From the NCBI GenBank assembly GCA_002069815.1, contig MWCB01000002.1, forward strand, positions 4,716 to 68,715: a stretch of 64,000 nucleotides of DNA, in the 5' to 3' direction. The DNA is from Tenericutes bacterium ADurb.Bin239. GTDB taxonomy: Bacteria; Bacillota_I; Bacilli_A; RFN20; CAG-826. The notes below the pieces were generated by a model. The model was not told where the DNA came from. It saw nothing but the letters and a program-made list of their open reading frames with translations, and did no database searches. Positions 462-28,024 of this stretch are shown here, one piece after another (the stretch's first letter is position 1; every line of letters starts with the position of its first letter). The position numbers and the translations under genes were made by a program.

Positions 462-484
462 TAGAAAGAAGAGTTATTTGATTT

Positions 485-2772: not shown

Positions 2773-2792
2773 AATTAACTATTATATATTGA

Positions 2793-7938: not shown

Positions 7939-8033
7939 TTTAGAAAAAAGAGTTGTTTTAAAAAGATTATATTTATTTAACATCAGAAAATAGCAATATG
8001 TAGAAAATTCCAGCAGATAAAAATTAACAGAAG

Positions 8034-9152
8034 TTATTTTCTCCATGTTTTAATATTAATGATCTGAGCGTAACTTTGAATAATTTTAACTACTTTAGTG
8101 GAAACATTTAAAGTTTGATAATCTTTATTAAATGTTATTTTTTCATTTTTTAAAGCTAACGCTAAATTAATTGATTGTATAATATTTTTTGTAGTAATTC
8201 CGCCGATAATGATACTTCCGAAATCTAGCGCTTCAGGTCTTTCAGTTGAAGTTCTAATGAGAATTCCAGGAAAATTAAGCATTGCGCTTTCCTCACTTAA
8301 AGTTCCAGAATCACTTAGCACACAAAACGATTCTTTTTGTAATTTATTATAGTCAAAAAAGCCTAATGGTTTCATTTGTTTTACAAGAGGATGGAATATG
8401 AAGTTTCGTTTTTCAATCCATTTTTTGCTACGCGGGTGCACCGAATAAATAACTGGTAGTTGATATTTTTCTGCGATGTCATTAATTGCAGTCATTAAGT
8501 TGTAGAAGTTATGTTCTAGGTCAATATTCTCTTCACGATGACATGAAACAAGGATATATTTACCTCTTTCTAATTTAAGTTCCGATAGTATTTTACTTTT
8601 TTCGATGTTTTCCGCATACATATGAATGACTTCAGCCATTGGAGAACCAGTTACGAAAATAGTTTTTGGATCAATACCTTCTTCAATAAGATAAAGGCGA
8701 CTATTTTCTGTGTAAGGCAAGTTAATATCAGCTATACTGTCTACAATTCGTCGATTAATCATTTCGCTAACATTCCAGTCCCAGCAACGATTGCCAGCTT
8801 CCATATGGAAAATAGGTACCTTTAATCTTTTTGCGGAGATAGCAGCTAAGGCACTGTTAGTATCGCCAAGAATTAAAACCGCATCAGGCTTTTCTTTAGC
8901 AATAACCTTGAATGACTTGGCAATAATATTACCCATTGTTTCCCCCAAATCTATATCTGCAACTTCTAGAAAATAATCTGGTTTTCTTATGCCTAAGTCA
9001 TTAAAAAAAATTTCATTTAGTTCATAATCATAGTTTTGGCCAGTATTAACCAAAATATGATTGAATACTTCGTCAGCCTTCTTAATAACAGCTGATAAAC
9101 GAATGATTTCAGGTCTTGTTCCTAAAATAGTCATTAATTTTAATTTTGACAT
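8034..9152 (-). CDS. fnlC: UDP-N-acetylglucosamine 2-epimerase (FnlC/CapG/WbjD type)
   Basis: The N-terminus MTILGTRPEIIRLSAVI is typical of non-hydrolysing UDP-GlcNAc 2-epimerases. It is the third gene of a CapE/CapF/CapG-like trio. Confidence 0.75.
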   Translation of the reverse strand: MSKLKLMTILGTRPEIIRLSAVIKKADEVFNHILVNTGQNYDYELNEIFFNDLGIRKPDYFLEVADIDLGETMGNIIAKSFKVIAKEKPDAVLILGDTNSALAAISAKRLKVPIFHMEAGNRCWDWNVSEMINRRIVDSIADINLPYTENSRLYLIEEGIDPKTIFVTGSPMAEVIHMYAENIEKSKILSELKLERGKYILVSCHREENIDLEHNFYNLMTAINDIAEKYQLPVIYSVHPRSKKWIEKRNFIFHPLVKQMKPLGFFDYNKLQKESFCVLSDSGTLSEESAMLNFPGILIRTSTERPEALDFGSIIIGGITTKNIIQSINLALALKNEKITFNKDYQTLNVSTKVVKIIQSYAQIINIKTWRK

Positions 9153-9155
9153 AAT

Positions 9156-10265
9156 CTATACCTCCTCATAAATTGTATCGGGATTATTTTTATCAAAAGG
9201 CTCATTACTCCATATAATCACAACCATATCAATTTCACCGATATTTTCAATGTTATGGGTATAGCCAGGCGGAATATCTAAAACTTGAAGTTTATCGCTA
9301 TTTACTTGATATTCAATCGTCTCATCAGTGTGCACCTTACGAAAACGAATAATTCCTTTTCCACATACAACCAGAAACTTTTCAATTTTGCTATGATGCC
9401 AATGGTTACCTTTTGTAACGCCAGGTTTAATAACGTTAATTGAAAGCTGGCCACAATCATTTGTCCTAAGAAATTCAGTAAAAGATCCGCGATTATCTAT
9501 TGTCATTTTTAAATCATATATAAGTTTTTCTTTTGGTAAATAACTTACATAATTAGAATATAATTTTTTTTGGAAGTCATCATCTAATTTAGGAATACTT
9601 AAGTTTTGTCTGCTATGTTTAAAGGAGTAGAGAAGATCTACAATATAACCAAGTTTTACTCTGTAAACAGGTGTGATTTGCCTAAACTTTTGGGATTTCG
9701 AGTCATTTTTATCCAATAAACCAATCAATGCATTAACAACGTCATCAATATAAACAAGCTGAATATCTTGGTTTGAATCATTAATAACAATTGGTAAATC
9801 ACGCGCGATGTTATACGAAAAAGTAGCAACAGCGCTATTGTAGTTAGGTTTTGCCCATTTGCCAAAAACATTATCAAGACGGAAAATGTATATTTTGTTT
9901 CCTGTTTCTTTTTCATAATCAAACATTAAATCTTCAGCAGCTTTTTTACTGATGCCATAAGGATTATTAATCGCAACTTTTGTGGAAGAAGAAATCATTA
10001 TTGGTGATTTGTTATTATGTTTTTTAAGGTTATTTAAAAGTACAGACGTAAAAACATAATTACCTTCCATAAATTCTTTTTCATCCTTTGGTCTATTAAC
10101 TCCCGCGAGATGAAAAACAAAGTCACACTCTTTGGTGAATTTATCTAAGTCTTCTAAAGAGGAATCTATGTCATACGAAAAAATAGTGTAGTTATTATTT
10201 TCTTTTAATCGTTCAATTAAATTCTGAGCAATAAAACCCTTGGAGCCAGTAACCAGTATTTTCAT
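9156..10265 (-). CDS. fnlB: UDP-2-acetamido-2,6-dideoxy-L-talose reductase/epimerase (FnlB/CapF type: SDR + C-terminal cupin)
   Basis: An N-terminal Rossmann motif MKILVTGSKGFIAQNL is followed by a C-terminal cupin-like half (HWHHSKIEKFLVVCGKG). It lies between the FnlA-like and FnlC-like genes. Confidence 0.7.
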   Translation of the reverse strand: MKILVTGSKGFIAQNLIERLKENNNYTIFSYDIDSSLEDLDKFTKECDFVFHLAGVNRPKDEKEFMEGNYVFTSVLLNNLKKHNNKSPIMISSSTKVAINNPYGISKKAAEDLMFDYEKETGNKIYIFRLDNVFGKWAKPNYNSAVATFSYNIARDLPIVINDSNQDIQLVYIDDVVNALIGLLDKNDSKSQKFRQITPVYRVKLGYIVDLLYSFKHSRQNLSIPKLDDDFQKKLYSNYVSYLPKEKLIYDLKMTIDNRGSFTEFLRTNDCGQLSINVIKPGVTKGNHWHHSKIEKFLVVCGKGIIRFRKVHTDETIEYQVNSDKLQVLDIPPGYTHNIENIGEIDMVVIIWSNEPFDKNNPDTIYEEV

Positions 10266-11260
10266 TATTTAAATATATCCAACTTCATTAATAATATTTT
10301 CATTTCTTTTACATTTAATCTTGTAGTATTGTGTGAATGATACGCATCCTTTATAAAATTTTGTTCAACGCCCTTTTCAATATATTTTTCATAGTTCAAA
10401 TTACGATTATCCGAAGGTATTTTATAAAAGTTTGGCAATTCAATAGCTTTCGCCATTTCCTCTTGTGTCACTAATACCTCGTAAAGTTTTTCACCATGCC
10501 TTGTTCCAATTAAAACGGGATTTTGCTTAACACTCTTTAATTCAAGTATTGCTCTTGCTAGAGTATCAATTGTGGCAGCGGGGGCTTTGTGCACGAATAA
10601 ATCTCCTTGTTTACCATGTTTAAAAGCATACAAAACAAGATCTACCGCATCATCAATTGTCATCATAAATCGTGTCATATTAGGATTAGTGATAGTAATA
10701 GGTTTTCCTGCTTTAATTTGATCGAGAAACAACGGTATTACAGAACCACGCGTTGCCATAACGTTACCATATCTTGTAAGGCATAAAATAGTATCAGTAG
10801 AACGAAGTTGTCTAGATCTAGCCACAACATTTTTTTCCATGAGAGCCTTACTCATTCCCATAGCATTAATTGGGTAGGCTGCTTTGTCAGTTGATAAGAA
10901 TATTGCCTTTTTAACACCATTTTTTACAGACGCAGTGATAACATTATCGCTTCCTAAGATGTTTGTTTTGACAGCTTCAAGCGGATAAAATTCACATGAG
11001 GGAACTTGTTTTAGTGCGGCAGCGTGAAAAACATAATCAACACCAATGAAAGCTCCTTCAATGGAGTTATAGTCACGAACATCACCAAGATAAAATTTTA
11101 GTTTGTTGTTATTGAATTTTTTTCTCATATCTTCCTGTTTTTTCTCATCGCGCGAAAGAATCCTAATTTCTTTAATGTCTGAGAGTAAGAAACGTTCAAC
11201 AACAGCATTTCCAAAAGAACCTGTTCCACCAGTTATTAAGAGTGTTTTATCTTTAAACAT
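10265..11260 (-). CDS. fnlA: UDP-GlcNAc 4,6-dehydratase/5-epimerase (FnlA/CapE type)
   Basis: LLITGGTGSFGNAV is the CapD/CapE-type extended-SDR motif and the protein is about 330 aa. Its start overlaps the fnlB stop. Confidence 0.8.
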   Translation of the reverse strand: MFKDKTLLITGGTGSFGNAVVERFLLSDIKEIRILSRDEKKQEDMRKKFNNNKLKFYLGDVRDYNSIEGAFIGVDYVFHAAALKQVPSCEFYPLEAVKTNILGSDNVITASVKNGVKKAIFLSTDKAAYPINAMGMSKALMEKNVVARSRQLRSTDTILCLTRYGNVMATRGSVIPLFLDQIKAGKPITITNPNMTRFMMTIDDAVDLVLYAFKHGKQGDLFVHKAPAATIDTLARAILELKSVKQNPVLIGTRHGEKLYEVLVTQEEMAKAIELPNFYKIPSDNRNLNYEKYIEKGVEQNFIKDAYHSHNTTRLNVKEMKILLMKLDIFK

Positions 11261-11479
11261 ATTATTTTTCCTTCCTTATTTTTCTAATGTAATGTTTATT
11301 TTACAAACAGAAATTATTTAAAACATATCAATATCATTTTAATTATACCTAAAACTGTGTAAATCTTCGTTAAATAATTAAAAATAAAAGATATTTAACT
11401 TTAATGGTTTAGAAACTGTTAAAAATTAACTATAATATTGATAGCGCATTATTTGTAACATTATGTAAGCGAGGTAATT

Positions 11480-12787
11480 ATGAATAAAAAAGTATATGTA
11501 GCAATTGGAGCAGACATTCTCCATCCAGGTCATATCAACATTATTAACGAAGGTGCAAAATACGGAAAAGTAATAATTGGTTTACTATCTGATGAGGCTA
11601 TAGCTTCTTACAAAAGACTACCAATTTATCCTTACGATTCTAGAAAAGCAGTTTTTGGCAGTCTTAAAAATGTTTATGAAATAGTAAGGCAAGACACCCT
11701 TGACTATACCGAAAATCTAAGAAAAATAAAACCTGATTATGTTGTACATGGTGATGATTGGCGCGAAGGTGTTCAACAATTAGTCAGAGAAAAAGTAATT
11801 GAAGTATTAAAAGAATGGGGCGGGGAACTTATTGAAGTTCCCTACACTCATGGTATTAGTGCCACTAGCGCTCATGCCCAAATCACTAGAGATTTGAGAG
11901 CACCAGATTATCGTCGCGGAACATTAAAACGAATGCTCCATTTAAAACCCTTTGTGTCAGTTATGGAAGCTTCTAATGGTCTATCTGGTCTTATTGTTGA
12001 AAATACAAGTGTTATTGATAAAGAAACGGGATTACCACGTTCTTTTGATGCAATGTGGATTTCTTCGCTTTGTGACTCAACCTTTAAAGGAAAACCAGAT
12101 ATTGAACTTGTGGACCTAACAAGTAGATTAGTCACTATCAACGAAATCATGGAAGTGACCACTAAACCGATTATTCTAGATGGCGACACAGGCGGTAAAG
12201 AGGAACACTTTGTGTTTAATGTTAGAACATTAGAAAGATTAGGAGTTTCCGCAATTATTATTGAAGACAAAACTGGTCTTAAAAAGAATTCACTATTTGG
12301 AACTGAAGTCGAACAAACTTTAGAAGATCCAGAGGTGTTTGCCCATAAGATTAGAGCCGGAAAACAAGCTTTAACCACTCGTGATTTTTTAATTTTTGCG
12401 CGTATTGAAAGTTTAATTGCCGGAAAAGACGTCGCGGATGCGATGATGCGCGCGAAAATTTACGTTGAAGCGGGAGCGGACGGAATTATGATTCACTCTA
12501 AAGATAAATCCGGAGAAGACATTTTTGAATTTATGCGACAATTCCGCAAATATAGTAAAGATATTCCAATTATTCTTGTCCCAACTTCTTACAATCAATT
12601 TACAGAAAAAGAATTAGCGGAAAAAGGAGCGAATATTATCATCCACGCTAATCATTTACTAAGAGCAGCCTACCCCGCAATGGTAAAGGCAGCCGAAACC
12701 ATCCTTGAAAATGGTCGCAGTAAAGAAGCGGATGAATTCTGTTTACCAATTAAAAAAGTATTAACACTTATTCCAGGTGGTAAATAA
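11480..12787 (+). CDS. pepM: bifunctional cytidylyltransferase (HxGH, TagD/Fom1-type) / phosphoenolpyruvate mutase PepM
   Basis: An N-terminal domain of about 110 aa carries [14 protein letters not shown], the HxGH cytidylyltransferase motif. The remainder is PepM-like ([13 protein letters not shown]...[10 protein letters not shown]). Confidence 0.85.
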
Positions 12788-13907
12788 AATGATTGATACA
12801 AAAGCGTTCTATGATTATTTATCAAGTAAAGACATTGACACATTTTTTGGAGTACCCGATTCTTTGCTTAAAGATATTTGTGCATATATCACACAAAATG
12901 CACCAAGTGAAAAACATATTATTACCGCTAATGAAGGTAATGCTGTTGCCCTTGCTTGTGGGAATTATTTAGCAACAGGAAAAATAGCAATGGTTTACTT
13001 ACAAAATAGTGGCTTAGGTAATATTGTTAATCCGCTTATTTCTCTAGCAGACGAAGATGTTTACAATATTCCAGTATTATTTATGGTGGGGTGGAGAGGT
13101 GAACCAGGAACACATGATGAGCCCCAACATAAAAAACAAGGAAAAATTACACTGAGTACTCTTGAAACACTCGGAGTAAAAACATTTATACTTGAAGAAA
13201 ATTATAAGCCAATTGTTGATGAAGCAGTTAAGTATATGAAAAAAACACTTAAACCAGCGGCCATCGTTGTTCGAAAAGGAACATTTAGTAAAGTTAAATT
13301 AGAACTCCCACTAGACTCTTTTTCAATGTCACGGGAAGAGGCCTTAAAAGCAATGATGAAACACATTGATGATAAAAGTGTCATAGTGAGTACAACTGGA
13401 AAAACAAGTCGCGAAGTATTTGAAATAAGAGTTAAAAATAATGATTCACACGAAAGAGACTTCTTGACTGTTGGATCAATGGGCCACACCGCATCAATTG
13501 CGCTTGGTATTGCTTTAGCCAGCAAAAAGCGTGTATTTTGCATTGATGGTGATGGTTCTATGCTCATGCATTTAGGTGGGTTAGGGGTTGCAGCAGTTAA
13601 CGCTCCTAAAAACTTTAGATATATTGTTATTAATAATGGAGCGCATGAATCAGTGGGTGGGCAACCCACAGTAGCGTTCTCGCTAAACTTTAAAAAGATT
13701 TTGGAAGGTCTAGGCTTTAGTAAAGTTTATGAAGTTAAGACATTAGAAGACATTGAGAAAGATTTTCCAAAGTTTAAGCGTAAAAATAAAGCAGCTTTAG
13801 TAGTGTATGTTAATCAAGGAAGCCGTGATGATTTAGGGCGTCCAACAACGACTCCAGCCCAAAATAAAGAGTCATTAATGAAGTTTTTAAGGAGAAGCCG
13901 TAAATAA
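12777..13907 (+). CDS. ppd: phosphonopyruvate decarboxylase (ThDP-dependent)
   Basis: [11 protein letters not shown] is the ThDP-binding motif and the 376 aa length fits Ppd. The gene overlaps pepM by 11 nt, indicating translational coupling. Confidence 0.8.
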
Positions 13908-13908
13908 A

Positions 13909-15714
13909 ATGAAAGCATTCATATTTAATAGTGGTATAGGATCCCGCTTAGGCGACTTAACAAAAGACAAACCCAAAGCGCTGGTTGAATTAAAAAACGG
14001 AGAAACTATTTTAGGACGACAACTTCGTATCCTGCGAAGTGTAGGAATTAAGCATATTGTCATTTCGACAGGGTATAAAGCAGAAATGATTAAAGATTAT
14101 TGTAGAAAAGAGTTTCCAGAATTAGATTTTACTTTTGTGCATAATCCAAAGTTTGACACTACCAATAGTATTTACACAATGTTCTTAGCGGAAAATACAT
14201 TTCAAGATCATTTTCTTATAATGCATGGCGATCTAGTATTTGATGAAAAAATAGTTGAAAAACTTTTAGTAGAAAAACATCGTGATTTAGCATGCATCAA
14301 TACTAATATTCCAAAACCTCTTAAAGATTTTAAAGGAAGAGTTAGGAATGGTAAACTCCATCGGATTTCGGTTGATATTTTTGGGGAAAATGATTATGCT
14401 TTGCAACCGTTATATAAGTTGAGTTTTGCCGCGATTAGCCAATGGATGCTTCAAATCAAGGATTTAGTTCGCGCAAATGTTGTTAATGTTTATGCCGAAA
14501 ATGCTTTTAATAATGCATTACCACTTCTAGATGTACGCGTCGTTGATTATAAAGATAATTTTATTGAAGAAATTGATACATTAGATGATTATGATAGAGT
14601 AAGCGATGCTGTAAGATTATTTGATTACGCAAATCAAAAAGTTTATAACGGAGATTACTTAGTTAGATTGGATGAAGTATTTAAAAAACATGATTTTAAG
14701 AGACCATTTATTGTATATAACGCTGCTGCTTATAAAAGCCCAGAGTATCCTAAGTTTATTAAAAGATATGAAACAATAATGTTTGATGATTATTCTCCTA
14801 ATCCAAAGTATGAAGAAATAATGCCTGGAATTAAACTGTTTAAAGAAAATAAATGCGATGTTATTGTTGCTATTGGTGGTGGTTCAACGTTAGACGTAGC
14901 AAAAGCAATAAAGTTATTTTCTAAACTAAATCCAAACATTGATTTTTTAAAACAAACACCAGTGTATGTTAATACTCCGCTTATTGCTATTCCCACAACA
15001 GCAGGAACTGGTAGCGAAACAACGCGATACGCTGTAATCTACGCAAGTGGTGAAAAACAATCGTTAACACATGATTGTATTTTTCCAGATATCACGATAA
15101 TTGATCCTACTTTTCTTCGCGGCTTGCCTGAATATCACCGGAGATCATCATTGCTTGACGCACTTTGTCAAGCAATTGAAAGTTATTGGTCAAAAGGCGC
15201 AACCAAACAGACCCGTGAATTTAGTGCGAGAGCGATTCACTTATTTAGGTATACTTATAAACACTATTTAGAAGGTCATCCGTTTGTGGACGATAGAATT
15301 ATGAAAATTGCCTACTTAGCAGGTCAGGCAATTAACATTACCGCTACAACAGCACCACATGCAATGAGTTATAAACTGACCTCCTTAACTGGTATTGCCC
15401 ATGGTCACGCTGTTAGTGTTACACTTCCTTACACCTATAAATATATGTTTGACAATATGGAAGTGGAAAAAGATAAAAATTTGGCTCAAACATTTGCCAA
15501 TCTTGCGAAAATTTTTGAAACTGATGAAACAAAACTATTTGAATTATTAAGAACTATCTTTGATGAATTTGAATTGGAAAAACCAAAGGTTACCGAAAAA
15601 CAACTTATGGAATTGATTAATGATGTGAATACAGAAAGGTTGCAGAATAATCCCGTTTTTCTCGATAAAGAAGCAATTTCAGAAATATATAGGAGCTCAC
15701 TCACAGTAGTGTAA
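13909..15714 (+). CDS. fusion: LicC-like nucleotidyltransferase (N) + iron-containing alcohol dehydrogenase (C), putative phosphonoacetaldehyde reductase/phosphonate cytidylyltransferase
   Basis: The N-terminus MKAFIFNSGIGSRLGDLTKDKPKALVEL has the NTP_transferase G-x-G-x-R...K pattern seen in LicC. The C-terminal 340 aa carry GGGSTLDVAKAI and conserved His residues typical of Fe-ADHs. The start lies 2 nt after the ppd stop. Confidence 0.75.
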   Translation: MKAFIFNSGIGSRLGDLTKDKPKALVELKNGETILGRQLRILRSVGIKHIVISTGYKAEMIKDYCRKEFPELDFTFVHNPKFDTTNSIYTMFLAENTFQDHFLIMHGDLVFDEKIVEKLLVEKHRDLACINTNIPKPLKDFKGRVRNGKLHRISVDIFGENDYALQPLYKLSFAAISQWMLQIKDLVRANVVNVYAENAFNNALPLLDVRVVDYKDNFIEEIDTLDDYDRVSDAVRLFDYANQKVYNGDYLVRLDEVFKKHDFKRPFIVYNAAAYKSPEYPKFIKRYETIMFDDYSPNPKYEEIMPGIKLFKENKCDVIVAIGGGSTLDVAKAIKLFSKLNPNIDFLKQTPVYVNTPLIAIPTTAGTGSETTRYAVIYASGEKQSLTHDCIFPDITIIDPTFLRGLPEYHRRSSLLDALCQAIESYWSKGATKQTREFSARAIHLFRYTYKHYLEGHPFVDDRIMKIAYLAGQAINITATTAPHAMSYKLTSLTGIAHGHAVSVTLPYTYKYMFDNMEVEKDKNLAQTFANLAKIFETDETKLFELLRTIFDEFELEKPKVTEKQLMELINDVNTERLQNNPVFLDKEAISEIYRSSLTVV

Positions 15715-15773
15715 ATAGCAAAGAATGATAACGTATGTTAAAATGACAGCGCGATCTGTGGATTCAATGAATT

Positions 15774-16562
15774 ATGTATAGACCTATTAAAAGAACAATG
15801 GACTTTGTATTATCGCTACTAGCAATCATAATGCTGAGCCCTATTTTTGTTGTTATTTCCATTTTAGTAAGAATAAATCTTGGAGCCCCTGTTCTTTTTA
15901 AACAAAAGCGAGCGGGAAGATATAATAAAATATTTACCTTATACAAATTTAGATCAATGCGAACTGTATATGACGAAAACGGAGAATTGTTGCCTGATGA
16001 ACAAAGATTAACGAAGCTAGGTCTTTTTTTACGCAAAACAAGTCTTGATGAATTGCCCCAACTATTTAATATTTTGTTTGGTCATATGACAATAATAGGG
16101 CCACGCCCAAGAGTTATTTTTGAGACAATGTTAATGAAAGACACAAAATATGTGTACAGGATGGCCATTAAACCAGGATTGAGTAGTTGGTCGGTGATTC
16201 ATGGAAGAAACAATATGAGAATTGATCAAGCTTTGGCTTATGATTTTGAGCATGTGGTTAAATTTTCATTTTGGTTAGATTTAAAAATATTTTTTAAGAC
16301 GATAGGGATTGTTTTGAAAAGGACAGGTATTAACACCGATGGTTATGTGACCACTAAGCCTATCAGTGAATTTTTGATTGAAAATAATTTAAAGACACCT
16401 GCTGAAATTACAGAAATAAAAAAAGAGTCATTTGATGTTGAGGCATCAAATTTAAAATATATACCGATGAATATATCTAAAGAAGAATTTAAAGCAAAAC
16501 GTCGTGAAATCCAAAAAAATCGCAAATCATATACTCCTAGCAAAATTGTAACTTGGGATTAA
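15774..16562 (+). CDS. initiating phosphoglycosyltransferase (small Bac_transf / PglC-WbaP C-domain type sugar transferase)
   Basis: MDFVLSLLAIIMLSPIFVVISILVRINLGAPVLFKQKRAGRYNKIFTLYKFRSMR is the hallmark N-terminal hairpin plus the K-F-R-(S/T)-M motif of bacterial sugar transferases. Confidence 0.8.
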   Translation: MYRPIKRTMDFVLSLLAIIMLSPIFVVISILVRINLGAPVLFKQKRAGRYNKIFTLYKFRSMRTVYDENGELLPDEQRLTKLGLFLRKTSLDELPQLFNILFGHMTIIGPRPRVIFETMLMKDTKYVYRMAIKPGLSSWSVIHGRNNMRIDQALAYDFEHVVKFSFWLDLKIFFKTIGIVLKRTGINTDGYVTTKPISEFLIENNLKTPAEITEIKKESFDVEASNLKYIPMNISKEEFKAKRREIQKNRKSYTPSKIVTWD

Positions 16563-16676
16563 ATGATGTATTTAAATTTTATTTTTATAAAAAATAAAGA
16601 AAACGCTAATGCTTATAGTATTCTTTTACTTTATAGTATAATGGTTGTGAATCCAAATTTTTAAGGAGGATTTCTT

Positions 16677-17216
16677 ATGGCAGAAAAATTAAGAGACTAC
16701 TTCGTAATCTTAGTGCTAGATGATATTACTTCACTTAAAGTAAGAACTTTAAAATTAACCGACAAAGATTTTAAAGTACCATATCGCAATTTCTATCCAC
16801 ATATTAACCTAGGCCGTTTTTTAGAAGCCGAAAAAAGCGTCGTGGTTAAAGCAATGAAGAAAGTATCAAAATTATTAAATTCTTTTGAAATAGATATTAA
16901 CAATGTTGAAATGTTAACTGAATACCTTATGGTTTTAACTTTCGCTGATAACGAAAAATTAAAATTTGTCCATCGCAAACTACATGATTTAGTGCCATAT
17001 AAATCCGACGAGTGGACTAATCCTGACTCAGGAAAATATGTCCCACATATTTCAATTTATTACAATCCAGGCGAAGATGTGCGTGAGATGCATAAACACT
17101 ACTTAAATATTTTCAAGCCTTTCAAGGGTAGAGTTGTCGCTATTGAACTTAGTGAATATGATGGCCAAAGCTTCCGTGTATCTCATCGATACGAATTGAA
17201 AAAGAGATTATTTTAA
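16677..17216 (+). CDS. hypothetical protein, possible 2H phosphoesterase (LigT-like) superfamily
   Basis: Two H-x-(S/T/N)-x patterns, HINL and HISI, are separated by about 85 aa. That resembles the 2H-fold spacing, although the first motif is non-canonical. Confidence 0.3.
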   Translation: MAEKLRDYFVILVLDDITSLKVRTLKLTDKDFKVPYRNFYPHINLGRFLEAEKSVVVKAMKKVSKLLNSFEIDINNVEMLTEYLMVLTFADNEKLKFVHRKLHDLVPYKSDEWTNPDSGKYVPHISIYYNPGEDVREMHKHYLNIFKPFKGRVVAIELSEYDGQSFRVSHRYELKKRLF

Positions 17217-17566
17217 TGATTAGTGATGATGTCATTAAAAAAGTAATAAAATTTCGAGATGACCGCGACTGGCGGCAATTTCATAATGGCAAAGATTTAG
17301 CAATTTCCCTTAATCTCGAAGCAAGTGAACTTCTAGAAATTTTTCAATGGTCGGGCGCTGATTTATCAGTTCCTGAGAAAATTGAAGCGATGAAAGAAGA
17401 ACTCGCTGACATCATGATGTACACTATTCTTTTTGCGGATAGATACAATATTGATCTAAATGAAGCCCTAGAAAAGAAGTTAGAAAAGAATAACAATAAG
17501 TATCCTGTAAGCGCTGCTAAGGGCAAAAAAGATAAATATACTGAACTTAAAGATGTCAAAAAATAA
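17216..17566 (+). CDS. MazG-like nucleotide pyrophosphohydrolase (YpjD-like, all-alpha NTP-PPase)
   Basis: EASELLEIFQW and EELADIMMY match the paired EExxE/D motifs of MazG domains. The protein is 116 aa and its start overlaps the previous stop (TAATG). Confidence 0.6.
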   Translation: MISDDVIKKVIKFRDDRDWRQFHNGKDLAISLNLEASELLEIFQWSGADLSVPEKIEAMKEELADIMMYTILFADRYNIDLNEALEKKLEKNNNKYPVSAAKGKKDKYTELKDVKK

Positions 17567-17792
17567 AACACTTTTTAAAATATTAGCAATCTTACTTCTC
17601 ATCATAGGCATCGTTTTAATTGTGTTTGGTTTTATTGATATTGTTAAAGTGACTACATTTAACAAAAATCTATTACCAGGCGAAGAACCAAGAGCGGCAA
17701 ACTTACTTTATCCCTTATTAGCAACCCCCTGTATGTTTGGCGGTGTGTTTCTCTTCGCGTTAGGTTTTGGAAAGAGTAAACAGCATGTCTAA
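17553..17792 (+). CDS. small membrane protein (two TM helices)
   Basis: A 79-aa ORF with two hydrophobic helices whose ends overlap both neighbouring genes. It has no homology anchor. Confidence 0.35.
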   Translation: MSKNKTLFKILAILLLIIGIVLIVFGFIDIVKVTTFNKNLLPGEEPRAANLLYPLLATPCMFGGVFLFALGFGKSKQHV

Positions 17793-18690
17793 ACCGCATA
17801 AAAGAAAACAAGCAAAATCTAAAATATATAGAGTAAGTGAAAATAGCGAACTTCTTACGTTTCTTTTAACAATTCCTGGATATTCGCGAAATAATATTAA
17901 AAGTTTACTTTCTCGTAAACAAGTTTTAGTCAACGATGTTCCTATTAGTCAATTTAATTTTGGTGTTTATAAAGGCGATGAAATCAAGATTACACCCTAC
18001 ATGAATAAAAAGATGACCGCGACTAAAGGAAGTCGCTTAAAAGTAATATATGAAGATGATGAAATAATCGTTATTGATAAACCAAGTGGCTTACTTACAA
18101 TTGCCAGTGATAAAGAAAAAAGACATACGGCTTATCGTCTTGTTAATGAACATGTTCAATCAAGTAATAAGAATGCTAGAGTCTTTATTGTTCATCGCTT
18201 AGACCAAGATACCAGTGGGGTAGTAATGTTTGCTAAAAGTCATGAATTAGCAAACGCTTTTCAACAAGATTGGAATAATATCGTGGCAAAACGCGGCTAT
18301 TATGCCATTATTAAAGGATCACCCGCCGAAGAAAAAGGGATAATTAAATCGTTCTTGTACAAATCAAAATCAAATGAAATGTATAGTGGTCATCGAACTA
18401 AAACAGGCAAATTTGCAGAAACCCATTACAAAGTAATTAAAAAAGGTGAAACATACTCTTTAGTGGACATCAATATATTAACTGGTCGCAAAAATCAAAT
18501 TAGAGTTCACTTAAAAGATTTAGGATTTCCGCTTGTAGGTGATAACAAATATGGTGGCGAAAAATCGCCAATTCAAAGACTCTGTCTCCATGCCTACGAA
18601 CTTAATGTAATGCACCCGTTCACGAAAAAAATACTTGTCTTTAAAGCAAAAACACCAAAAGAATTCGAAATATTATTAAAAAGCGTGTAA
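17767..18690 (+). CDS. RluA-family 23S rRNA pseudouridine synthase with N-terminal S4 domain
   Basis: HRLDQDTSGVVMFAKS is the RluA catalytic-Asp motif. S4-like residues precede it. The start could instead be 17785. Confidence 0.8.
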   Translation: MERVNSMSKPHKRKQAKSKIYRVSENSELLTFLLTIPGYSRNNIKSLLSRKQVLVNDVPISQFNFGVYKGDEIKITPYMNKKMTATKGSRLKVIYEDDEIIVIDKPSGLLTIASDKEKRHTAYRLVNEHVQSSNKNARVFIVHRLDQDTSGVVMFAKSHELANAFQQDWNNIVAKRGYYAIIKGSPAEEKGIIKSFLYKSKSNEMYSGHRTKTGKFAETHYKVIKKGETYSLVDINILTGRKNQIRVHLKDLGFPLVGDNKYGGEKSPIQRLCLHAYELNVMHPFTKKILVFKAKTPKEFEILLKSV

Positions 18691-18734
18691 AATAACATAG
18701 AATGTTATAATGATTAAGCGGGCGAGGTATTTGT

Positions 18735-20069
18735 ATGAAAAAAAAAGCAAGACAAGATGGCGTGGCACTTATCACATTATGGAAAATGTTTCTTAAAAAC
18801 GTATTCTCCGTTTTTTATTTTATGATTGTGGGTTTAATACTAGCAGTTATATATACACAATTTTTAGTGAAACCATCGTTTGTAGCAACTGGTAATATTG
18901 AAAATGTTGGAGCAGTAAACACGGCCTTAATGCAAACTATGCCAATGATTGCGAAGGAGCAACAAACTCTTGAAAAAGTAGTGGAAAAAATGAATGTCCC
19001 AGTTGTAGAACAAGCAAAAAAAATTGAAGAAATTAACACAAAATTAGTTGTTAATAATTATTCCGCGACAACATTAAAAGTTACTATTTCATACAAAAGC
19101 ACCGCAAAAAACGAAGCTGAACTTGTTGTCAATTGCGTAATAGAAGTCTCGATTGAACGTTTTATTGAACGAAATCCGGCATTGGAAGATAAGGTTAAAA
19201 AGCAAAGTAATCCAATTGTAGCGCGTCCAACTGGTTTATCGAATAGAGCAATATATATAGGATTTATTGGATTAGGTGTAGTATTTGGTGCTGTAGTTGG
19301 TATTGCGGGTGATTTAATTAATCGACATATTTTGTTTGCCGAAGATTTAAAAGAGTATGGTGTTCCTTGTAACGTAATTAATTTAAATCAAAAAAAGGGT
19401 GATGTTATTCCCCCACTTGAAACAGAGGAATTTTTAAAAGGAACTATAGTTTTACAAGATCAACTAGAGGGAGTGATTAGAGACAAAAAAGCAAGGGTAA
19501 TTGGAGTAGCTAATTTGGGGTATGATACTTACGAAGTTTTAAGTGCAGTACTGGCGGAGAATCTATCAAAAGTTGGACTTAAAACTTTAGTTATAGATTT
19601 AGATTTAGAACATCCAAGAATACATGCTTTCTATAATGTTGACACCGCGATAAATATAACCAACATTCTAAATGACGAAGTTATTAAACCCCTTAAAATC
19701 AAAAATAATTTAGAAGTGTTACCCACTACCACATATGCTTATCCCGCTCATTTTTTGAAAGATGAAAGATTACATAAATTAATTAGAGAAAATGCACTTA
19801 AATATGATTATGTGTTTGTTAATATTCCAATCGTGGATTATTATGCTCCTATCTTATTTAATTTTGATTTAATTGATATGTTGCTTATCAACACTTCTTT
19901 TGAAGGCACGAAGATGAAAAAATTAGATGCGTATATTGAAAACCTCGAAATAGAACATCGCAGTAAATTATTCCTTAATGGTATCGATAGTCGCGCTAAA
20001 CGGGATTTTACAAAAATTAAAGAAAAGATAAAAGCTTTATTCAAACGCAAAAATAAAAAGGACGAGTAA
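18735..20069 (+). CDS. fused polysaccharide co-polymerase (Wzz/CpsC-like, 2 TM) + degenerate CpsD/BY-kinase-like ATPase domain
   Basis: An N-terminal TM segment followed by PSFVATGNIEN and a second TM (IGFIGLGVVFGAVVGIAG) resembles CpsC. The C-terminus aligns by eye to CpsD: Walker A' LVIDLDLEHP is kept, but the P-loop GKS/T is replaced by GYDTYEV and there is no C-terminal Tyr cluster. Confidence 0.5.
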   Translation: MKKKARQDGVALITLWKMFLKNVFSVFYFMIVGLILAVIYTQFLVKPSFVATGNIENVGAVNTALMQTMPMIAKEQQTLEKVVEKMNVPVVEQAKKIEEINTKLVVNNYSATTLKVTISYKSTAKNEAELVVNCVIEVSIERFIERNPALEDKVKKQSNPIVARPTGLSNRAIYIGFIGLGVVFGAVVGIAGDLINRHILFAEDLKEYGVPCNVINLNQKKGDVIPPLETEEFLKGTIVLQDQLEGVIRDKKARVIGVANLGYDTYEVLSAVLAENLSKVGLKTLVIDLDLEHPRIHAFYNVDTAINITNILNDEVIKPLKIKNNLEVLPTTTYAYPAHFLKDERLHKLIRENALKYDYVFVNIPIVDYYAPILFNFDLIDMLLINTSFEGTKMKKLDAYIENLEIEHRSKLFLNGIDSRAKRDFTKIKEKIKALFKRKNKKDE

Positions 20070-20099
20070 GCTCATCCTCTTCTTAGTAATTTATTAATT

Positions 20100-21338: not shown

Positions 21339-23045
21339 ATGAAGACATTTCACTTTAATGATGACTATGCGCTTATTTGTTTTGACGATATAAATGTTAA
21401 TGATCCTTTCTTAATTCTTAACTCTAAAAGTTTTGAAAAAGTGTTTCGAAGTTATCATCGCACTTTAAAAGATGAACAAAGTGTTTTACTTATGCCGCTT
21501 ATCAAATTAACGGCGACTGATTTATTAGAATTTTATAAACTTCTTTTTAAGTATGAACTTAGTACAGTTTTAAGACGGATGCCAAAAGTGACCAAGGAAC
21601 ACGTCTTACCCATATATGAATTAACGGAAAACTTCTATGACTATTGGCGAAAATTTGAAAGATTTGGCTTACTTAATGCTTATAAGGAAGATACATCTCG
21701 CACGAAAGTTGATGATTTACTAAAGGTAAGTAACGACTTCAACCATCAAATTATTACAATATACCGAACCATTAGTCAAAAACTTTTAGGGGAACACTTC
21801 CACGTCTATCGGCAATTACCCGCGGGGATTAGTGCGAATATGCTCTATACTTATCACACTTTTGATAAACGTTTGAAAGAGTATAAGCTTTTGAATAATA
21901 TTCCAGTGGCAACAAAGATAGTTATTCATCCACCCTTTATTATTAATTCAAAGAGTAATGTAAGACGCGGCACTTTTACACCCTTAACTTATTCTTATAA
22001 TCCAATCAATCACCTTAAGATTAATAAAAGTAGTTTTATTGCTTTTCCATTATGGGTGGGACCACTTCTAGCGTATGTTTATATTCATATTGATTTCTTA
22101 CATCACGGGATTGCGCTATCTAATCTTTTTGAAATCGCTGATTATCAAAAGATAAAAGATCAAAAACCAAACTTAATATATATCTATGGTGTTGAAGATA
22201 CTTTGTATGATTCGAAGTTTTATCATGATAATAAAAACGATATCTATTTAGGATTTGTGTGTAAGAGTGAAGAAAATGATTACTTTGGTTATCTTAAAAA
22301 GATGTTACTTACCCTTCATAACTTATATATGATTAATCACGATAGTTTGCCACTGCATGGAGCGATGGTTGAAATTACCCTTCGCACAAATGCTAAGAAA
22401 AGAGTTGTGATTGTCGGTGATAGCGGAGCGGGGAAAAGCGAAACACTAGAAGCTCTCCGTCAAATTGCAAGTGATGATATTAAAGATATCAAAGTTGTCT
22501 TTGATGATATGGGTACCCTTAGTATTAATGAAAACAAAGAAATTGTCGCTAGCGGGACGGAAATCGGCGCATTTGTAAGACTTGACGACTTAGAACAAGG
22601 TTTTGCTTATGAAGTGATGGACCGCGCCTTATTTTTAAATCCTTCCCAAGTTAACGCCCGCGTTGTTATTCCCCTAAGTAGATACTCCTTTGTGATTGAA
22701 AAGCATCCAGTTGATCTTTTCTTATACGCTAATAATTATGAAAATAAAGATGGTATTAAAGTATTTGATAAATATGATGATGCGCTCGCCGTCTTTAAAA
22801 AAGGAATGCGGAGAGCTAAGGGGACCACCGCTGAAGTTGGGATGACTCAATCTTACTTTGCTAACCCATTTGGGCCAATGCAATATCGCGCTAAGACGGA
22901 TCGATTATTAAATAAATTCTTTAAAGCTCTGAGTGATAATAAAGTGGTGTTAGGGGAGTTATACACAAAACTAGCGCTCCATGATGAGGAAGTTAGAGGA
23001 CCGGCTAATGCGGCCCTCGCGCTTCTAAAATTATTGCAAGGTTAA
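21339..23045 (+). CDS. hypothetical protein with C-terminal HPr kinase/phosphorylase-like P-loop domain
   Basis: LHGAMVEITLRTNAKKRVVIVGDSGAGKSETLEAL resembles the HprK core (HGVLVDV...GVLITGDSGIGKSETALEL). The N-terminal 350 aa match nothing I recognise. Confidence 0.45.
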   Translation: MKTFHFNDDYALICFDDINVNDPFLILNSKSFEKVFRSYHRTLKDEQSVLLMPLIKLTATDLLEFYKLLFKYELSTVLRRMPKVTKEHVLPIYELTENFYDYWRKFERFGLLNAYKEDTSRTKVDDLLKVSNDFNHQIITIYRTISQKLLGEHFHVYRQLPAGISANMLYTYHTFDKRLKEYKLLNNIPVATKIVIHPPFIINSKSNVRRGTFTPLTYSYNPINHLKINKSSFIAFPLWVGPLLAYVYIHIDFLHHGIALSNLFEIADYQKIKDQKPNLIYIYGVEDTLYDSKFYHDNKNDIYLGFVCKSEENDYFGYLKKMLLTLHNLYMINHDSLPLHGAMVEITLRTNAKKRVVIVGDSGAGKSETLEALRQIASDDIKDIKVVFDDMGTLSINENKEIVASGTEIGAFVRLDDLEQGFAYEVMDRALFLNPSQVNARVVIPLSRYSFVIEKHPVDLFLYANNYENKDGIKVFDKYDDALAVFKKGMRRAKGTTAEVGMTQSYFANPFGPMQYRAKTDRLLNKFFKALSDNKVVLGELYTKLALHDEEVRGPANAALALLKLLQG

Positions 23046-24408: not shown

Positions 24409-25893
24409 TTAAGCCTTAGTTACCCAAGCGGGTAAGTAAGATGTATAACCACGAAAGGTAAATACTTTTGTATCATGGAACTTTGTATTTTCTTCACCAG
24501 TAACTTTGTTTTCAAAGTCTTGAAGGTCTTCGTTCCACACGGGAGTTCCACCTGTTTTAGTTAAATCGTAATAGCCCTTAACGGGGGTACTACCTTCCAT
24601 TACTAAGTCATTAGCGCCCCCATTAGTGGAGAATTTCATAGTTCCATTAGCCGCATTCCAGAAAACATTTAAGTTTAAAGAAATGCGTGGAATTTTATAA
24701 ATCCGTTCTACCGCGGCGGCGGCGGGGTGACCTTTTGTACCATCTAAGTTATAAGTATCATCAGGATTTGGTGGTCCAGGATTTTTATTATAGGCACCCG
24801 CTCTACTAGCGGCAATTGCCACCATATATGGATTTAAGGTATCCATCAAGGCTTGGCTATTACTGCCATGACTGCCGTGGTGACTAGCTTTATATAAGCT
24901 AACCTGTGGCAACGTTTCATTCCGTAATAAACTAGTTTCGCTCCCAGTTGTTAAATCACCCGCCGTAAAAAATTTAAAGTCTTGATAACAGAAAAGTAAA
25001 GCAAGGCTATTAGCGTTACCACTGCTTGTATCACTATATGCGCCAGTATTTAAGACATCCACATAAAATTCACTCGTAAAGTAATAACGGTTTGTTGCTC
25101 CATTTACTTTATTGATCGAATCAAGCGCAGTGTAATAAACGGCACCATCATTTTGTTGACGATTACGAATGAGTTGTTTGTAAGCACTACTTTCACCACC
25201 AGCGCGTCCATAATCTAAGAAACTAGTAATATGCTCAATATCGCGAACGATATACGGAATACCCTGAGTATGATCAGCGTCACCATGACTAGCAATAACC
25301 ATATCAAGCCGGCCATCTTCCACCTTTTCATTAAGGAAGTCACGATTCATTTCGCCATCACACTGCCACCCCGCATCAATTAAGATTTCAATATTGCCTT
25401 TTTTAATTAAGAGCGAGTCAGCGTAAATTTTATAAGTTTCTAGGAAGTATACTTCAAGAGGACCATCGCCTTCATATCCTTTATAGAAAGGATCATCAGC
25501 GCTTGTCCCCGTACCAACTCCAGTTTGTTCTGCTACCTGATTAACAGTTAAGAATAAACTAGCTTTAACATCAGGATAATTAAGCGCGTGGACATTAACC
25601 ATTGTTTGACCAGCGGCGACACCAGTGACAACACCGGTTTCACTGATAGTGGCCAAAGCAGTGTCCGTAACACTCCACACGACATCTTGCGCTGCGTCTT
25701 TTGGTAATACTTCGGCTTGTAGTGAAATAGTATCATTTACGTACGTAGTAACATCAAAAACTTGAGTGTTATCTTTTAAAATTTTAACACTTAAAGGTGT
25801 GGGGGGCACACTTACTACCTCCGAAGAGGAGCGCCTAGTGCAACCACTAAGCGCTAAGAGTACTAATAAACCAAAGGTGGCTAATCTTTTCAT
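24409..25893 (-). CDS. lipoprotein: Big_2 (Ig-like) domain + ComEC-C-terminal-type metallo-beta-lactamase hydrolase (putative extracellular nuclease/hydrolase)
   Basis: The lipobox LLALSGCTRRSSSE and a Big_2-like repeat (WSVTDTALATISETGVVTG) are present. The MBL motifs VIASHGDADHTQG and YKASHHGSHGSNSQ resemble the ComEC lactamase domain. Confidence 0.6.
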   Translation of the reverse strand: MKRLATFGLLVLLALSGCTRRSSSEVVSVPPTPLSVKILKDNTQVFDVTTYVNDTISLQAEVLPKDAAQDVVWSVTDTALATISETGVVTGVAAGQTMVNVHALNYPDVKASLFLTVNQVAEQTGVGTGTSADDPFYKGYEGDGPLEVYFLETYKIYADSLLIKKGNIEILIDAGWQCDGEMNRDFLNEKVEDGRLDMVIASHGDADHTQGIPYIVRDIEHITSFLDYGRAGGESSAYKQLIRNRQQNDGAVYYTALDSINKVNGATNRYYFTSEFYVDVLNTGAYSDTSSGNANSLALLFCYQDFKFFTAGDLTTGSETSLLRNETLPQVSLYKASHHGSHGSNSQALMDTLNPYMVAIAASRAGAYNKNPGPPNPDDTYNLDGTKGHPAAAAVERIYKIPRISLNLNVFWNAANGTMKFSTNGGANDLVMEGSTPVKGYYDLTKTGGTPVWNEDLQDFENKVTGEENTKFHDTKVFTFRGYTSYLPAWVTKA

Positions 25894-25897
25894 ATTA

Positions 25898-28024
25898 TTA
25901 AGCCTCGTTGATTAATTTAAGGTTATCAATATTAATACGATTACCAGTCCCAGCTTTAACACAAAGTGCAACACGAACATTGCTGCTAGTGTCAAGACGG
26001 ACGCGGTATTTTTGTAATTCAAAGTTATTAATAGTAAATTCGCGTTCGATTTTAATCCAAGTTGCTCCATCATCAGTGGACACTTCAAACATGAGAACGG
26101 TGCCCTTTGCGTTAGTTCCGTAAATGGCACAATCAAATTCAATCATGTTAAATTCAAGATCGTTTTCTTGTAATTCAATGCGACCAGCGTTATCTTGAGC
26201 AGCGTTAGTTTGGGTACGCATTGCATAAGTACCAGTACGCTTATCTCTTTTGTCACCACCGATTAAAGTGTTTCTAAGGTACCATTGCTTTTGAGTAGGA
26301 TGACCGAGAGTAACCATATCATCGTTATGTGTATATGTTGGTTTAGTGAGACTATTACCATAACCATTAGCTGAATCAGCATCCTCTAAGTCAAAGGTAT
26401 GTAAAATTTCAAGAATGCTTTCATCAGTTCCAAAAACAGTAACGAGGAAGGTTCTAGTTGTTTGTCCGGCCCCTTTCTTAACGGTAGCGGTTAAAGTAAC
26501 ATCTTCCATAATGTCGGGGTGCGTGACTGCGCCAGTACTAGCGTTAATAATAGCACTATCTGAAGCCCATTCAACCGTCACACCCTCGTAATTTTCTAAA
26601 GTTGTTGGTAGGTTGAGAGTCGTCACTGTCGTTGGCACACAGTCAAGTACCTCTAAAGTGGCCGCGGCAATTTGAGCGGCTTGTTGTTCCGTCATTACCG
26701 CCGCCCCAAAATCAGTTGAACGAACAATTTTGAGTTGGTTGGCTGGTTTACCATAACCAAATGCACACATAACCCCAACGACATCAATCGCCGAACCAGG
26801 AGCGGTGGCTTGGAATTTTGCATTAATTGCCGCAAATTCATCAACAGTCATTAACGTTGGGTCAACGCGGAGAGTAAATTCTTGATCACCAACCATTATT
26901 TTGACGTTGTAGGCTTTAGTATAGCTTGTTGGTAAAACACTGATAACCCCCGCTTTTATTTCAACGAATGAAGCTTGGTGGGTAGCCATATCATCTAAGC
27001 TTAAGAGATTTTTATCACTAACATCAACGATATTATAGGTTAGGGCTGGAGTATGTGGCACGAAGTATTCAACATCCACTAATTCACGAGTACCGAAATA
27101 GTTTTTGAAATAACCACCAACGGTATATGATTCACCAACGGTAACAGGAAATGCATTATTATCTTGTTTATAGATATAATATCCTTCCGCGCCATTTTGG
27201 ATAAAGTATTCAACCGTGCCTTCAGCGCTAACTGGCGCTGCATAAGTTACAACGCCACGGATTTTAAACGGAGTGCCGTTTTCCGTAGCAGTTGAAACAA
27301 AATCACTATGGAGACTATAATCCATATTTTCCCAGTTTTGGCCAACTGCATCTTCGACAACTTCAAGGCTAAAGACTTTTTTAACCGTGCCTTTAACTGC
27401 ACTTGTGGCAGTAATATCAACAGGGCCAACCGCGATACCGCTAACTAGGCCCGTATTATCAACTTCAGCTTTACTCGTATCAGAACTAGACCAGAGTACT
27501 TCTTGGCTAGCTTCAACTGGTAAAACAGTAGCGTTAAGTTTTAGCGTCCCGCCCACACTCACGATCGTTAAATCATCCACTGAATTAATAAGAATTTCAG
27601 TTGGATCGGGAGTAACGATAACTTTAGGAGTAATCGCTAGTGATACTTGGGCTGAGAGATCGACATTAACCGTTGAGGTTGCGATAATAAAGACATTTCC
27701 TTCCCCTATCCCAGTTACTTCACCACTGTCGGTAATAGTCGCTTTAGTTGTGTCACTAGTTGCCCAAGTGACACTTTGCGGGGCGCCTTCAGGTTTAACA
27801 GTAGCACTAAAAAGGGCTGACTCATCAACAGCCAAACTGCTTGGGCCACTAATAGTGATACTAGTTGGTGCAATTGGGCCTCCGCTACTGGTTGTTGTAA
27901 CAACCGATCCTTCGCTACTGCTTGTTTTACAGCCGCTTAGGAGTAAAGCTACAAGCGGAATTAATAATAATCTTCTTCGTTTCATAAACATCTCCTTTCT
28001 TATATATGTAAAAAACGAAAACAT
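25898..28024 (-). CDS. lipoprotein with three Big_2 repeats, OB-fold-like and lamin-tail-like C-terminal regions (putative surface nucleic-acid/ligand binding protein)
   Basis: The lipobox LLLSGCKTSSSEG is followed by three copies of W(A/S)(T/S)SDT(S/T)KA...GxVTG. The central and C-terminal domains are assigned by eye only. Confidence 0.5.
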   Translation of the reverse strand: MFSFFTYIRKEMFMKRRRLLLIPLVALLLSGCKTSSSEGSVVTTTSSGGPIAPTSITISGPSSLAVDESALFSATVKPEGAPQSVTWATSDTTKATITDSGEVTGIGEGNVFIIATSTVNVDLSAQVSLAITPKVIVTPDPTEILINSVDDLTIVSVGGTLKLNATVLPVEASQEVLWSSSDTSKAEVDNTGLVSGIAVGPVDITATSAVKGTVKKVFSLEVVEDAVGQNWENMDYSLHSDFVSTATENGTPFKIRGVVTYAAPVSAEGTVEYFIQNGAEGYYIYKQDNNAFPVTVGESYTVGGYFKNYFGTRELVDVEYFVPHTPALTYNIVDVSDKNLLSLDDMATHQASFVEIKAGVISVLPTSYTKAYNVKIMVGDQEFTLRVDPTLMTVDEFAAINAKFQATAPGSAIDVVGVMCAFGYGKPANQLKIVRSTDFGAAVMTEQQAAQIAAATLEVLDCVPTTVTTLNLPTTLENYEGVTVEWASDSAIINASTGAVTHPDIMEDVTLTATVKKGAGQTTRTFLVTVFGTDESILEILHTFDLEDADSANGYGNSLTKPTYTHNDDMVTLGHPTQKQWYLRNTLIGGDKRDKRTGTYAMRTQTNAAQDNAGRIELQENDLEFNMIEFDCAIYGTNAKGTVLMFEVSTDDGATWIKIEREFTINNFELQKYRVRLDTSSNVRVALCVKAGTGNRINIDNLKLINEA

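Follow-up and report, generated by a model that had tools for sequence, protein, structure and literature searches.

The gene at positions 18735-20069 (+ strand) of the DNA analyzed here, a 64,000-nucleotide stretch of contig MWCB01000002.1 from Tenericutes bacterium ADurb.Bin239 (hereafter the window), encodes a protein of 444 amino acids in which a polysaccharide co-polymerase (PCP) part and a part resembling the bacterial tyrosine kinases (BY-kinases) are fused in a single, intact open reading frame (ORF) with an ATG start. The kinase-like half has lost its catalytic motifs, and the protein is probably a phosphorylation-independent PCP-2-type co-polymerase or scaffold carrying a pseudokinase domain. 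Cycles of BY-kinase phosphorylation are the textbook means of controlling Wzx/Wzy-dependent assembly of capsules and exopolysaccharides, and to our knowledge the experimental recognition of pseudokinase versions dates only from 2025 and is confined to Gram-negative bacteria. The family of the window protein would extend this solution to an uncultured lineage of Mycoplasmatota/Bacilli type, in which there is no outer membrane to cross, and the compact, naturally fused form of the protein could serve as a model for what the BY-kinase fold does without phosphorylation.

Two transmembrane (TM) segments were predicted from hydropathy, flanking an outer domain. A short basic N-terminus (residues 1-22, MKKKARQDG..., 18735-18800), which the positive-inside rule would place in the cytoplasm, is followed by TM helix 1 (residues 23-45, 18801-18869, Kyte-Doolittle peak 2.39), a predicted extracytoplasmic alpha/beta domain of about 125 amino acids (residues 46-170, 18870-19244), which is short like those of CpsC and CapA, and TM helix 2 (residues 171-193, 19245-19313, Kyte-Doolittle peak 2.34). 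The putative cytoplasmic pseudokinase domain with the BY-kinase fold (residues 230-420, 19422-19994) was recognized from TIGR01007, a profile search of the PDB, Foldseek and dN/dS, and it is followed by a Lys/Arg-rich C-terminal tail (19995-20066) that replaces the Tyr cluster and contains a predicted helix at residues 426-439; all of these features lie on the + strand. The AlphaFold2 (AF2) model, for which the family alignment served as input, has a mean predicted local distance difference test (pLDDT) score of 80.8 and shows a compact alpha/beta domain (pLDDT 85-93) between two long helices, residues 12-44 and 170-197, with a Rossmann-like domain after the second of them; the C-terminal helix is modeled at low pLDDT.

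When curated cut-offs were applied, no model was reached by the 444-residue protein. The Pfam Wzz match (PF02706, residues 12-55) had an E-value of 0.017 and 15.8 bits against a cut-off of 25.5, the CbiA and AAA_31 matches were likewise sub-threshold, and TIGR01006, the CpsC family model, matched weakly over residues 10-144. Among the aligned family sequences, 18 of 19 matched Wzz at E ≤ 0.01, the best at 1.8e-5. The best NCBIfam matches were BY-kinase models, TIGR01007 (E 6.5e-9) and EpsG (E 1.6e-7), each below its own cut-off; TIGR01007 scored 35.6 bits where 108 are required, and the alignments to both models start just past the P-loop position. Compared with all PDB sequences, the family profile retrieved BY-kinases only (CapA/CapB at 1.4e-6, Wzc at 1e-5, VpsO and Etk); MinD and ParA structures were absent from its matches at E ≤ 0.01. 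The top Foldseek match of the AF2 model was full-length Escherichia coli Wzc (7nib, 7nhr and 9exo, E 5e-18 to 1e-16), with both halves of the protein covered. Isolated kinase domains (Wzc, CapAB, Etk, BceF, VpsO) mostly gave target-normalized TM-scores of 0.70-0.76, with BceF at about 0.66, and the kinase-domain structures 3la6, 2ved, 3cio and 6u1q were matched at E 1e-7 to 5e-10. The C-terminal half has, according to these profiles and the predicted structure, the fold of a BY-kinase catalytic domain. An earlier note, made by a model from the letters of the sequence, had described the N-terminal half as CpsC/Wzz-like with a TM-loop-TM arrangement and the C-terminal half as keeping the CpsD layout; the former agrees with hydropathy, the AF2 model, the Wzz matches across the family and the Foldseek match to Wzc, and for the latter a similarity to CpsD/CapB/Wzc-type ATPases is detectable with NCBIfam and PDB profiles as well as in the fold. 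An identity as a MinD/ParA-type ATPase was also considered. A ParA-like PF-32 protein came first in a single-sequence search of the PDB (E 0.0017), but the family profile, NCBIfam and Foldseek all indicate BY-kinases, and the deviant Walker A motif of MinD/ParA (SIMIBI ATPases), KGGxxGK[ST], is found nowhere in the 444 residues.

Motif positions were taken from HMMER alignments to CapB and from a MAFFT alignment of 165 relatives. The degenerate Walker A position spans residues 254-272 (RVIGVANLGYDTYEVLSAV, 19494-19550, + strand) in the alignments to canonical kinases. It reads GVANLGYDTYEV, with a loop shorter than the canonical one by one residue, the P-loop Lys replaced by Tyr266 and the Mg-binding Ser/Thr by Glu267, so that the stretch aligned with GxxxxGK[ST] is NLGYDTYEV. 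A regular-expression search of the whole protein found neither GK[ST] nor [AG]x4GK, which rules out an intact Walker A motif elsewhere. The Walker A' remnant (residues 283-294, KTLVIDLDLEHP, 19581-19616, + strand), aligned with LIVDGDMRKP of CapB, retains DxD in LVIDLDLEHP, while the Arg of hhhhDxDxR is replaced by Glu292. Walker B (residues 357-366, YDYVFVNIPI, 19803-19832, + strand), aligned with FVIIDTPP of CapB, is likewise degenerate: YVFVNIP carries Asn363 in place of the catalytic Asp of hhhhDxxP. No Tyr is present in the last 25 residues, and the 26-residue tail that starts at residue 419 contains 12 Lys/Arg and four Asp/Glu. Alignment to characterized kinases confirms what the earlier note had read by eye, namely that the P-loop GKS/T (there GYDTYEV), the Walker B Asp (VFVNIP) and the Tyr cluster are all missing; no second Walker A motif makes up for the loss. 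The ExxRxxR oligomerization motif was discarded as a marker. Only its Glu is kept (EFLKGTI), and because canonical low-GC relatives are also without the Arg residues, the motif is uninformative. Judged by its motifs, the protein falls outside the active BY-kinase class as defined by TIGR01007 and BYKdb, every catalytic hallmark of which is missing, and the cytoplasmic domain would have no ATP binding or hydrolysis and no kinase activity.

The degenerate state is shared and maintained. A word-indexed search of 5.8 billion proteins identified 19 homologues with 48-100% identity, all of them from metagenomes or metagenome-assembled genomes (MAGs); members of the family carry the labels Bacilli or Bacillales MAGs. 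All 19 have the degenerate motifs in common (consensus VIGVxNLGYETYD, IDLDLExP and YDYVFxNVP), a fixation far beyond chance. The family shows no variation at N260, G262, K283, D288, E292 and P294, position 290 is Asp or Asn, position 267 is Asp, Glu or Asn, and the position of the Walker B Asp is occupied by Asn, Lys or Ser. The number of Tyr residues in the last 25 positions is 0-1 in every homologue. Compared with an orthologue of 95% identity (dS about 0.1), dN/dS was 0.22 over the whole protein, with 0.24 in residues 1-200 and 0.20 in the pseudokinase half; the dead domain is under purifying selection, and values of about 0.2 mean that it is selectively maintained. A decaying, functionless remnant of a once-active fused kinase could account for the loss of every catalytic motif and for the position of the gene outside the glycan locus, but it is scarcely credible for a gene with conserved synteny and a confident AF2 model, and the pseudogene candidate was rejected on the ORFs, intact in every homologue down to 48% identity, and on a dN/dS near 0.2 for each half of the protein.

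An exhaustive profile search of 1.84 billion representative sequences returned 4,794 matches at E ≤ 1e-3, and motifs were counted in the 163 alignable top ones. P-loop K[ST] is missing in 44 of the 163 relatives, 41 of which have also lost the Walker B Asp and 42 the Tyr-rich tail. GK[ST] is present in 93, and here the Asp is kept in 92 and at least three tail Tyr residues in 61. After masking of the motif columns, a neighbor-joining tree places the query in a clade of 31 clusters (at 50% identity); 28 of these 31 are without any P-loop K[ST], and in two of the remaining three the K[ST] is incidental. Two more small degenerate clades are present in the tree. The canonical relatives closest to the query are likewise fused, about 450-470 amino acids long, with GEGK[ST], DxDxR, DxxP and YYYY tails, and the topology suggests independent loss within low-GC fused relatives. 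The family also brings to light proteins that are missed by motif-based BY-kinase catalogues and by Pfam cut-offs and are now labeled 'hypothetical protein'. A broader reading, to which we give only slight weight, is that wall-less or low-GC monoderms harbor a large unannotated clade of fused co-polymerase/pseudokinases (at least 31 clusters) that jointly discarded kinase activity, Tyr cluster and CpsB but kept DxD, that phosphorylation-free control of Wzy evolved independently in monoderms, and that the acidic pocket might act as an oligomerization switch responding to Mg2+ or another ligand.

A different deviation was seen in about 16 clusters of fused PCP/BY-kinase relatives of about 460 amino acids, including P0033, P0036, P0037, P0043, P0051, P0053, P0054, P0070, P0084, P0107, P0132, P0137 and P0139. 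Their P-loop reads xELK[ST]T, with Leu or Phe replacing the Gly before the Lys, while DxDxR, DTPP and a Tyr-rich tail are retained; in one of their loci (L015, gene at 601-2007) a CpsB_CapC phosphatase gene adjoins. The sequence xELK[ST]T may represent a non-canonical yet active Walker A motif.

The genomic context links the protein to Wzx/Wzy-dependent polysaccharide synthesis. The gene is the sole PCP-like gene in or beside a Wzx/Wzy locus of about 26 kb; it shares its strand with the initiating transferase, from which it is separated by 2.2 kb in the downstream direction. Scans of the approximately 50 ORFs of the window detected no further PCP, BY-kinase, PHP-type phosphatase or low-molecular-weight phosphatase, and no second PCP, kinase or phosphatase was detected in the 10 kb upstream of the window. 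Contigs sharing the first genes show that the glycan locus extends about 6.5 kb upstream of the window, where unrelated genes follow; CpsB, CpsC and CpsD are all missing along this continuation. The gene order of initiating transferase, LigT-like, MazG-like, TM protein, RluA-family, PCP and, on the opposite strand, aminotransferase is kept in three orthologous loci (L003, L004 and L007, at identities down to 48%) and in L008, the locus of P0020, which is the first relative outside the 19. The four-gene LigT/MazG/TM/RluA order was found in L003, L004, L006, L007 and L008. Distant degenerate relatives are located next to Wzy (Wzy_C) and GT4 genes (L010), between LicD/IspD and TagF-like/glycosyltransferase genes (L009), between CapD-like and Epimerase_2 genes (L012), or after the same sugar-nucleotide trio as at window positions 8034-11260 and before a LigT-like gene (L011). 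The association with Wzx/Wzy is genomic on two counts, the window gene standing beside such a locus and distant relatives inside such loci. The earlier note had regarded the gene as detached from the glycan locus by an unrelated four-gene operon. The four genes are real, but 'detached' overstates a separation of 2.2 kb on the same strand, with no predicted + strand terminator between 11480 and 20069 and in an arrangement kept in every orthologous locus read.

A role outside the polysaccharide pathway would connect the protein either to the upstream genes for RNA modification and nucleotide housekeeping or, as a membrane-anchored MinD/ParA-like factor, to positioning. In its favor, the gene is the fifth of a co-directional block after the LigT-like, MazG-like, TM and RluA-family genes, the LigT-like gene is adjacent even in the rearranged L011, and the PF-32 protein mentioned above was the best single-sequence match. 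Relatives without the four-gene block are nevertheless located within glycan loci, and this evidence, together with a family profile that matches BY-kinases only, a Wzz/CpsC-like N-terminal half and the missing MinD/ParA-type Walker A motif, makes such a role very improbable.

The distribution of the cognate phosphatase parallels that of the motifs. A CpsB_CapC gene is found beside relatives in L014 and L015, downstream of the canonical P0030 and the variant P0033, and in none of eight pseudokinase loci (L003, L004, L007, L008, L009, L011, L012 and the window). It appears that the loss of the kinase motifs was accompanied by that of the substrate tail and of the phosphatase. These data also bear on the idea that the dead domain is the partner, a regulator or a regulatory target of an active BY-kinase that is encoded separately, with its phosphatase, elsewhere in the genome, for which the proposed CapB1/CapB2 and PtkB/PtkA pairs would be analogues. 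For Firmicutes, pairs of an inactive and an active BY-kinase have been proposed (PMC3795738), 39 orphan catalytic domains are recorded in Mycoplasmatota by BYKdb (PMC9800525), and the genome was inspected over about 74 kb. The protein offers no Tyr cluster for phosphorylation in trans, though, kinase or phosphatase genes occur in 0 of 8 pseudokinase loci, and for EcpK genetic data speak against a dependence on active BY-kinases (PMC12004946). We consider a partnership of this kind quite unlikely.

Some further points weigh against a phosphorylation-independent co-polymerase. The loss of ATP binding is deduced from motifs, and the Walker A' DxD and the P-loop neighborhood (N260, G262) are invariant, because of which ligand or metal binding of some kind could persist. 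The gene stands outside the glycan locus, after four RNA/nucleotide-related genes, and possibly has a promoter of its own, and a separate active BY-kinase or phosphatase may lie beyond the 64-kb window and the 10 kb upstream. Persisting binding could make the domain a ligand-dependent switch that holds a nucleotide or metal in a non-canonical way, for example Mg2+ through DxD and the conserved acidic position 267. The invariance of D288, E292, N260 and G262 and the restriction of positions 290 (D/N) and 267 (D/E/N) would fit such a switch, and Mg2+, not nucleotide, reportedly induces the closed, oligomerization-competent state of Wzc (PMC9800525). Yet the loop is one residue shorter and has neither Lys nor Ser/Thr, and the P-loop sequence is not conserved in more distant degenerate relatives, so that conservation within the family may only mirror overall similarity; a ligand switch seems decidedly improbable.

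Under the phosphorylation-independent co-polymerase model, a single polypeptide joins a membrane anchor of N-in orientation to the short outer domain resembling CpsC/CapA, and these to the second TM helix, the domain of the Wzc/CapB fold and the basic C-terminal helix. The dead domain would still oligomerize or dock under the membrane, and would thereby act as a phosphorylation-independent scaffold that orders the TM and outer parts. These parts would in turn work with the Wzy and Wzx proteins of the adjacent polysaccharide locus with its phosphonate genes, and the basic C-terminal helix may rest against the membrane.

This model has precedents in the literature. BY pseudokinases are known, among them the fused proteins SMc01795 of S. 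meliloti, VV1_2305 of V. vulnificus and GumC of Xanthomonas, all from Gram-negative bacteria (PMC12004946, PMC9800525), and a phosphorylation-independent scaffold model has been described for EcpK/EpsV and HfsB/HfsA (PMC12004946) and for GumC (PMC9800525). The pseudokinase scaffold unable to autophosphorylate that the earlier note had proposed fits the published model for EcpK/HfsB and GumC, with inactivity predicted from the sequence. Going by their descriptions, GumC, SMc01795 and VV1_2305 resemble the window protein in that one polypeptide has two TM segments, an outer PCP domain and a BY-kinase-like domain without catalytic motifs and/or Tyr cluster; they serve Wzx/Wzy pathways, and the window gene adjoins a Wzx/Wzy locus. 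They differ in their diderm envelope and in a large periplasmic helical domain that reaches the OPX/Wza-type exporter, whereas the window protein has the CpsC/CapA-like outer domain of about 125 amino acids, and they come from Proteobacteria whereas the window protein is from an uncultured Mycoplasmatota/Bacilli-type lineage. EcpK/EpsV of Myxococcus xanthus and HfsB/HfsA of Caulobacter are similar, again by description, in having the BY-kinase fold without Walker A, A' and B motifs or a Tyr tail. EcpK moreover ends in a Lys/Arg-rich helix, as the window protein does, for which membrane contact has been suggested (PMC12004946). In contrast to the fused window protein, these are stand-alone pseudokinases with a PCP-2 partner, from other lineages with another type of envelope, and EcpK has lost Walker A' too, whereas DxD is retained here.

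Among active kinases, the canonical fused P-type BY-kinases of low-GC bacteria (P0030, P0034) are alike in length (about 440-470 amino acids), in their succession of TM segment, short loop, TM segment and kinase fold, and in their location in or beside capsular polysaccharide loci; they differ by GEGK[ST], DxDxR, DxxP, a YYYY tail and an adjacent CpsB_CapC gene, all of which are lost in the query family. CapA/CapB and CpsC/CpsD likewise have a short outer domain between two TM segments, and the kinase-fold domain of the window protein is related to CapB with a profile E-value of 1.4e-6 and TM-scores of about 0.72-0.74. These are the split F-type systems of Firmicutes, in which CapB2 and CpsD are active and have Tyr clusters and a cognate phosphatase. 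With its fold in spite of lost motifs and Tyr tail, its coupling to a PCP and its selective constraint, the window protein is best grouped with the phosphorylation-independent PCP-2 subfamily. The principle is already published, and what is new here is the monoderm lineage and the short CapA-like ectodomain. No report of a counterpart of the BY pseudokinases in monoderms or Mollicutes turned up in full-text literature searches, a literature search for a co-polymerase or tyrosine kinase in Mollicutes found nothing, and the BYKdb table lists no fused (P-type) BY-kinase for Mycoplasmatota (PMC9800525).

The Wzx/Wzy-dependent glycan locus occupies window positions 1-16562, and scans of the window ORFs revealed no other PCP in it. 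A GT4 glycosyltransferase gene and a TupA-like ATP-grasp gene near the start of the window precede Wzy (4068-5288), LicD (5553-6419) and Wzx (6352-7938). These are followed by a trio of sugar-nucleotide genes (Polysacc_synt_2, Epimerase_2 and Polysacc_synt_C, 8034-11260), by phosphonate genes (11480-15714) encoding a fusion of cytidylyltransferase and phosphoenolpyruvate (PEP) mutase, a thiamine pyrophosphate enzyme resembling phosphonopyruvate decarboxylase and a fusion of NTP-transferase and iron-containing alcohol dehydrogenase, and by the initiating sugar transferase (15774-16562). The presence of the phosphonate genes and of the LicD-family transferase within one Wzx/Wzy locus suggests that the surface glycan is decorated with phosphonate.

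Between the glycan locus and the PCP gene, four translationally coupled genes with overlaps of 1 to 26 nt extend over 16677-18690 on the + strand: a 2H-phosphoesterase/LigT-like gene (2_5_RNA_ligase2, 16677-17216), a MazG-like gene (17216-17566), a 79-residue membrane ORF (17553-17792) and an RluA-family pseudouridine synthase gene (17767-18690). The LigT-like 2H-phosphoesterase gene of the rearranged L011 (10627-11166) also adjoins the PCP-pseudokinase gene. A possible promoter of the PCP gene itself (TTAAAA-16-TAGAAT, 18676-18729, + strand) was recognized by a match to the consensus, which is no proof of function; a promoter-like extended -10 element (TGTTATAAT, 18704-18712) and a ribosome-binding site (GAGGT) also lie within the 44-nt gap 5' of the gene. 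For the + strand, prediction gave no intrinsic terminator over the interval 11480-20069. Where the PCP gene and the aminotransferase gene converge, a hairpin (12-bp stem, 20055-20082) overlaps the stop codon of the PCP gene; it scored as a terminator on the - strand only. Rfam and tRNA scans gave nothing relevant near the PCP gene.

Downstream, a protein of 568 amino acids (21339-23045, + strand) belongs to no Pfam family and has the P-loop GDSGAGKSE and a weak PEP-carboxykinase-like match over residues 313-420 (E 2.7e-5). Its place, the second gene after the pseudokinase gene, is conserved in L003, L004, L007 and L008. As a candidate partner kinase it was rejected, with weak similarity to PEP-carboxykinase/ABC-like P-loops and nothing BY-kinase-like. 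Release factors 1 and 2 are both encoded in the window (42146-43219 and 49400-50455), and with a release factor 2 gene present UGA is a stop codon and translation table 11 applies. Release factor 1 has the same sequence as OQA79289.1 of Tenericutes bacterium ADurb.Bin239, an unclassified member of the Mycoplasmatota known from an anaerobic digester MAG. Finally, two large surface proteins with Big_2 repeats (24409-28024, - strand), one of them with a metallo-beta-lactamase-fold domain, and a YfhO-family membrane protein of 1190 amino acids (30620-34192, + strand) are encoded nearby; L003, L004 and L008 also have the two Big_2 proteins, and L007 and L011 have YfhO.

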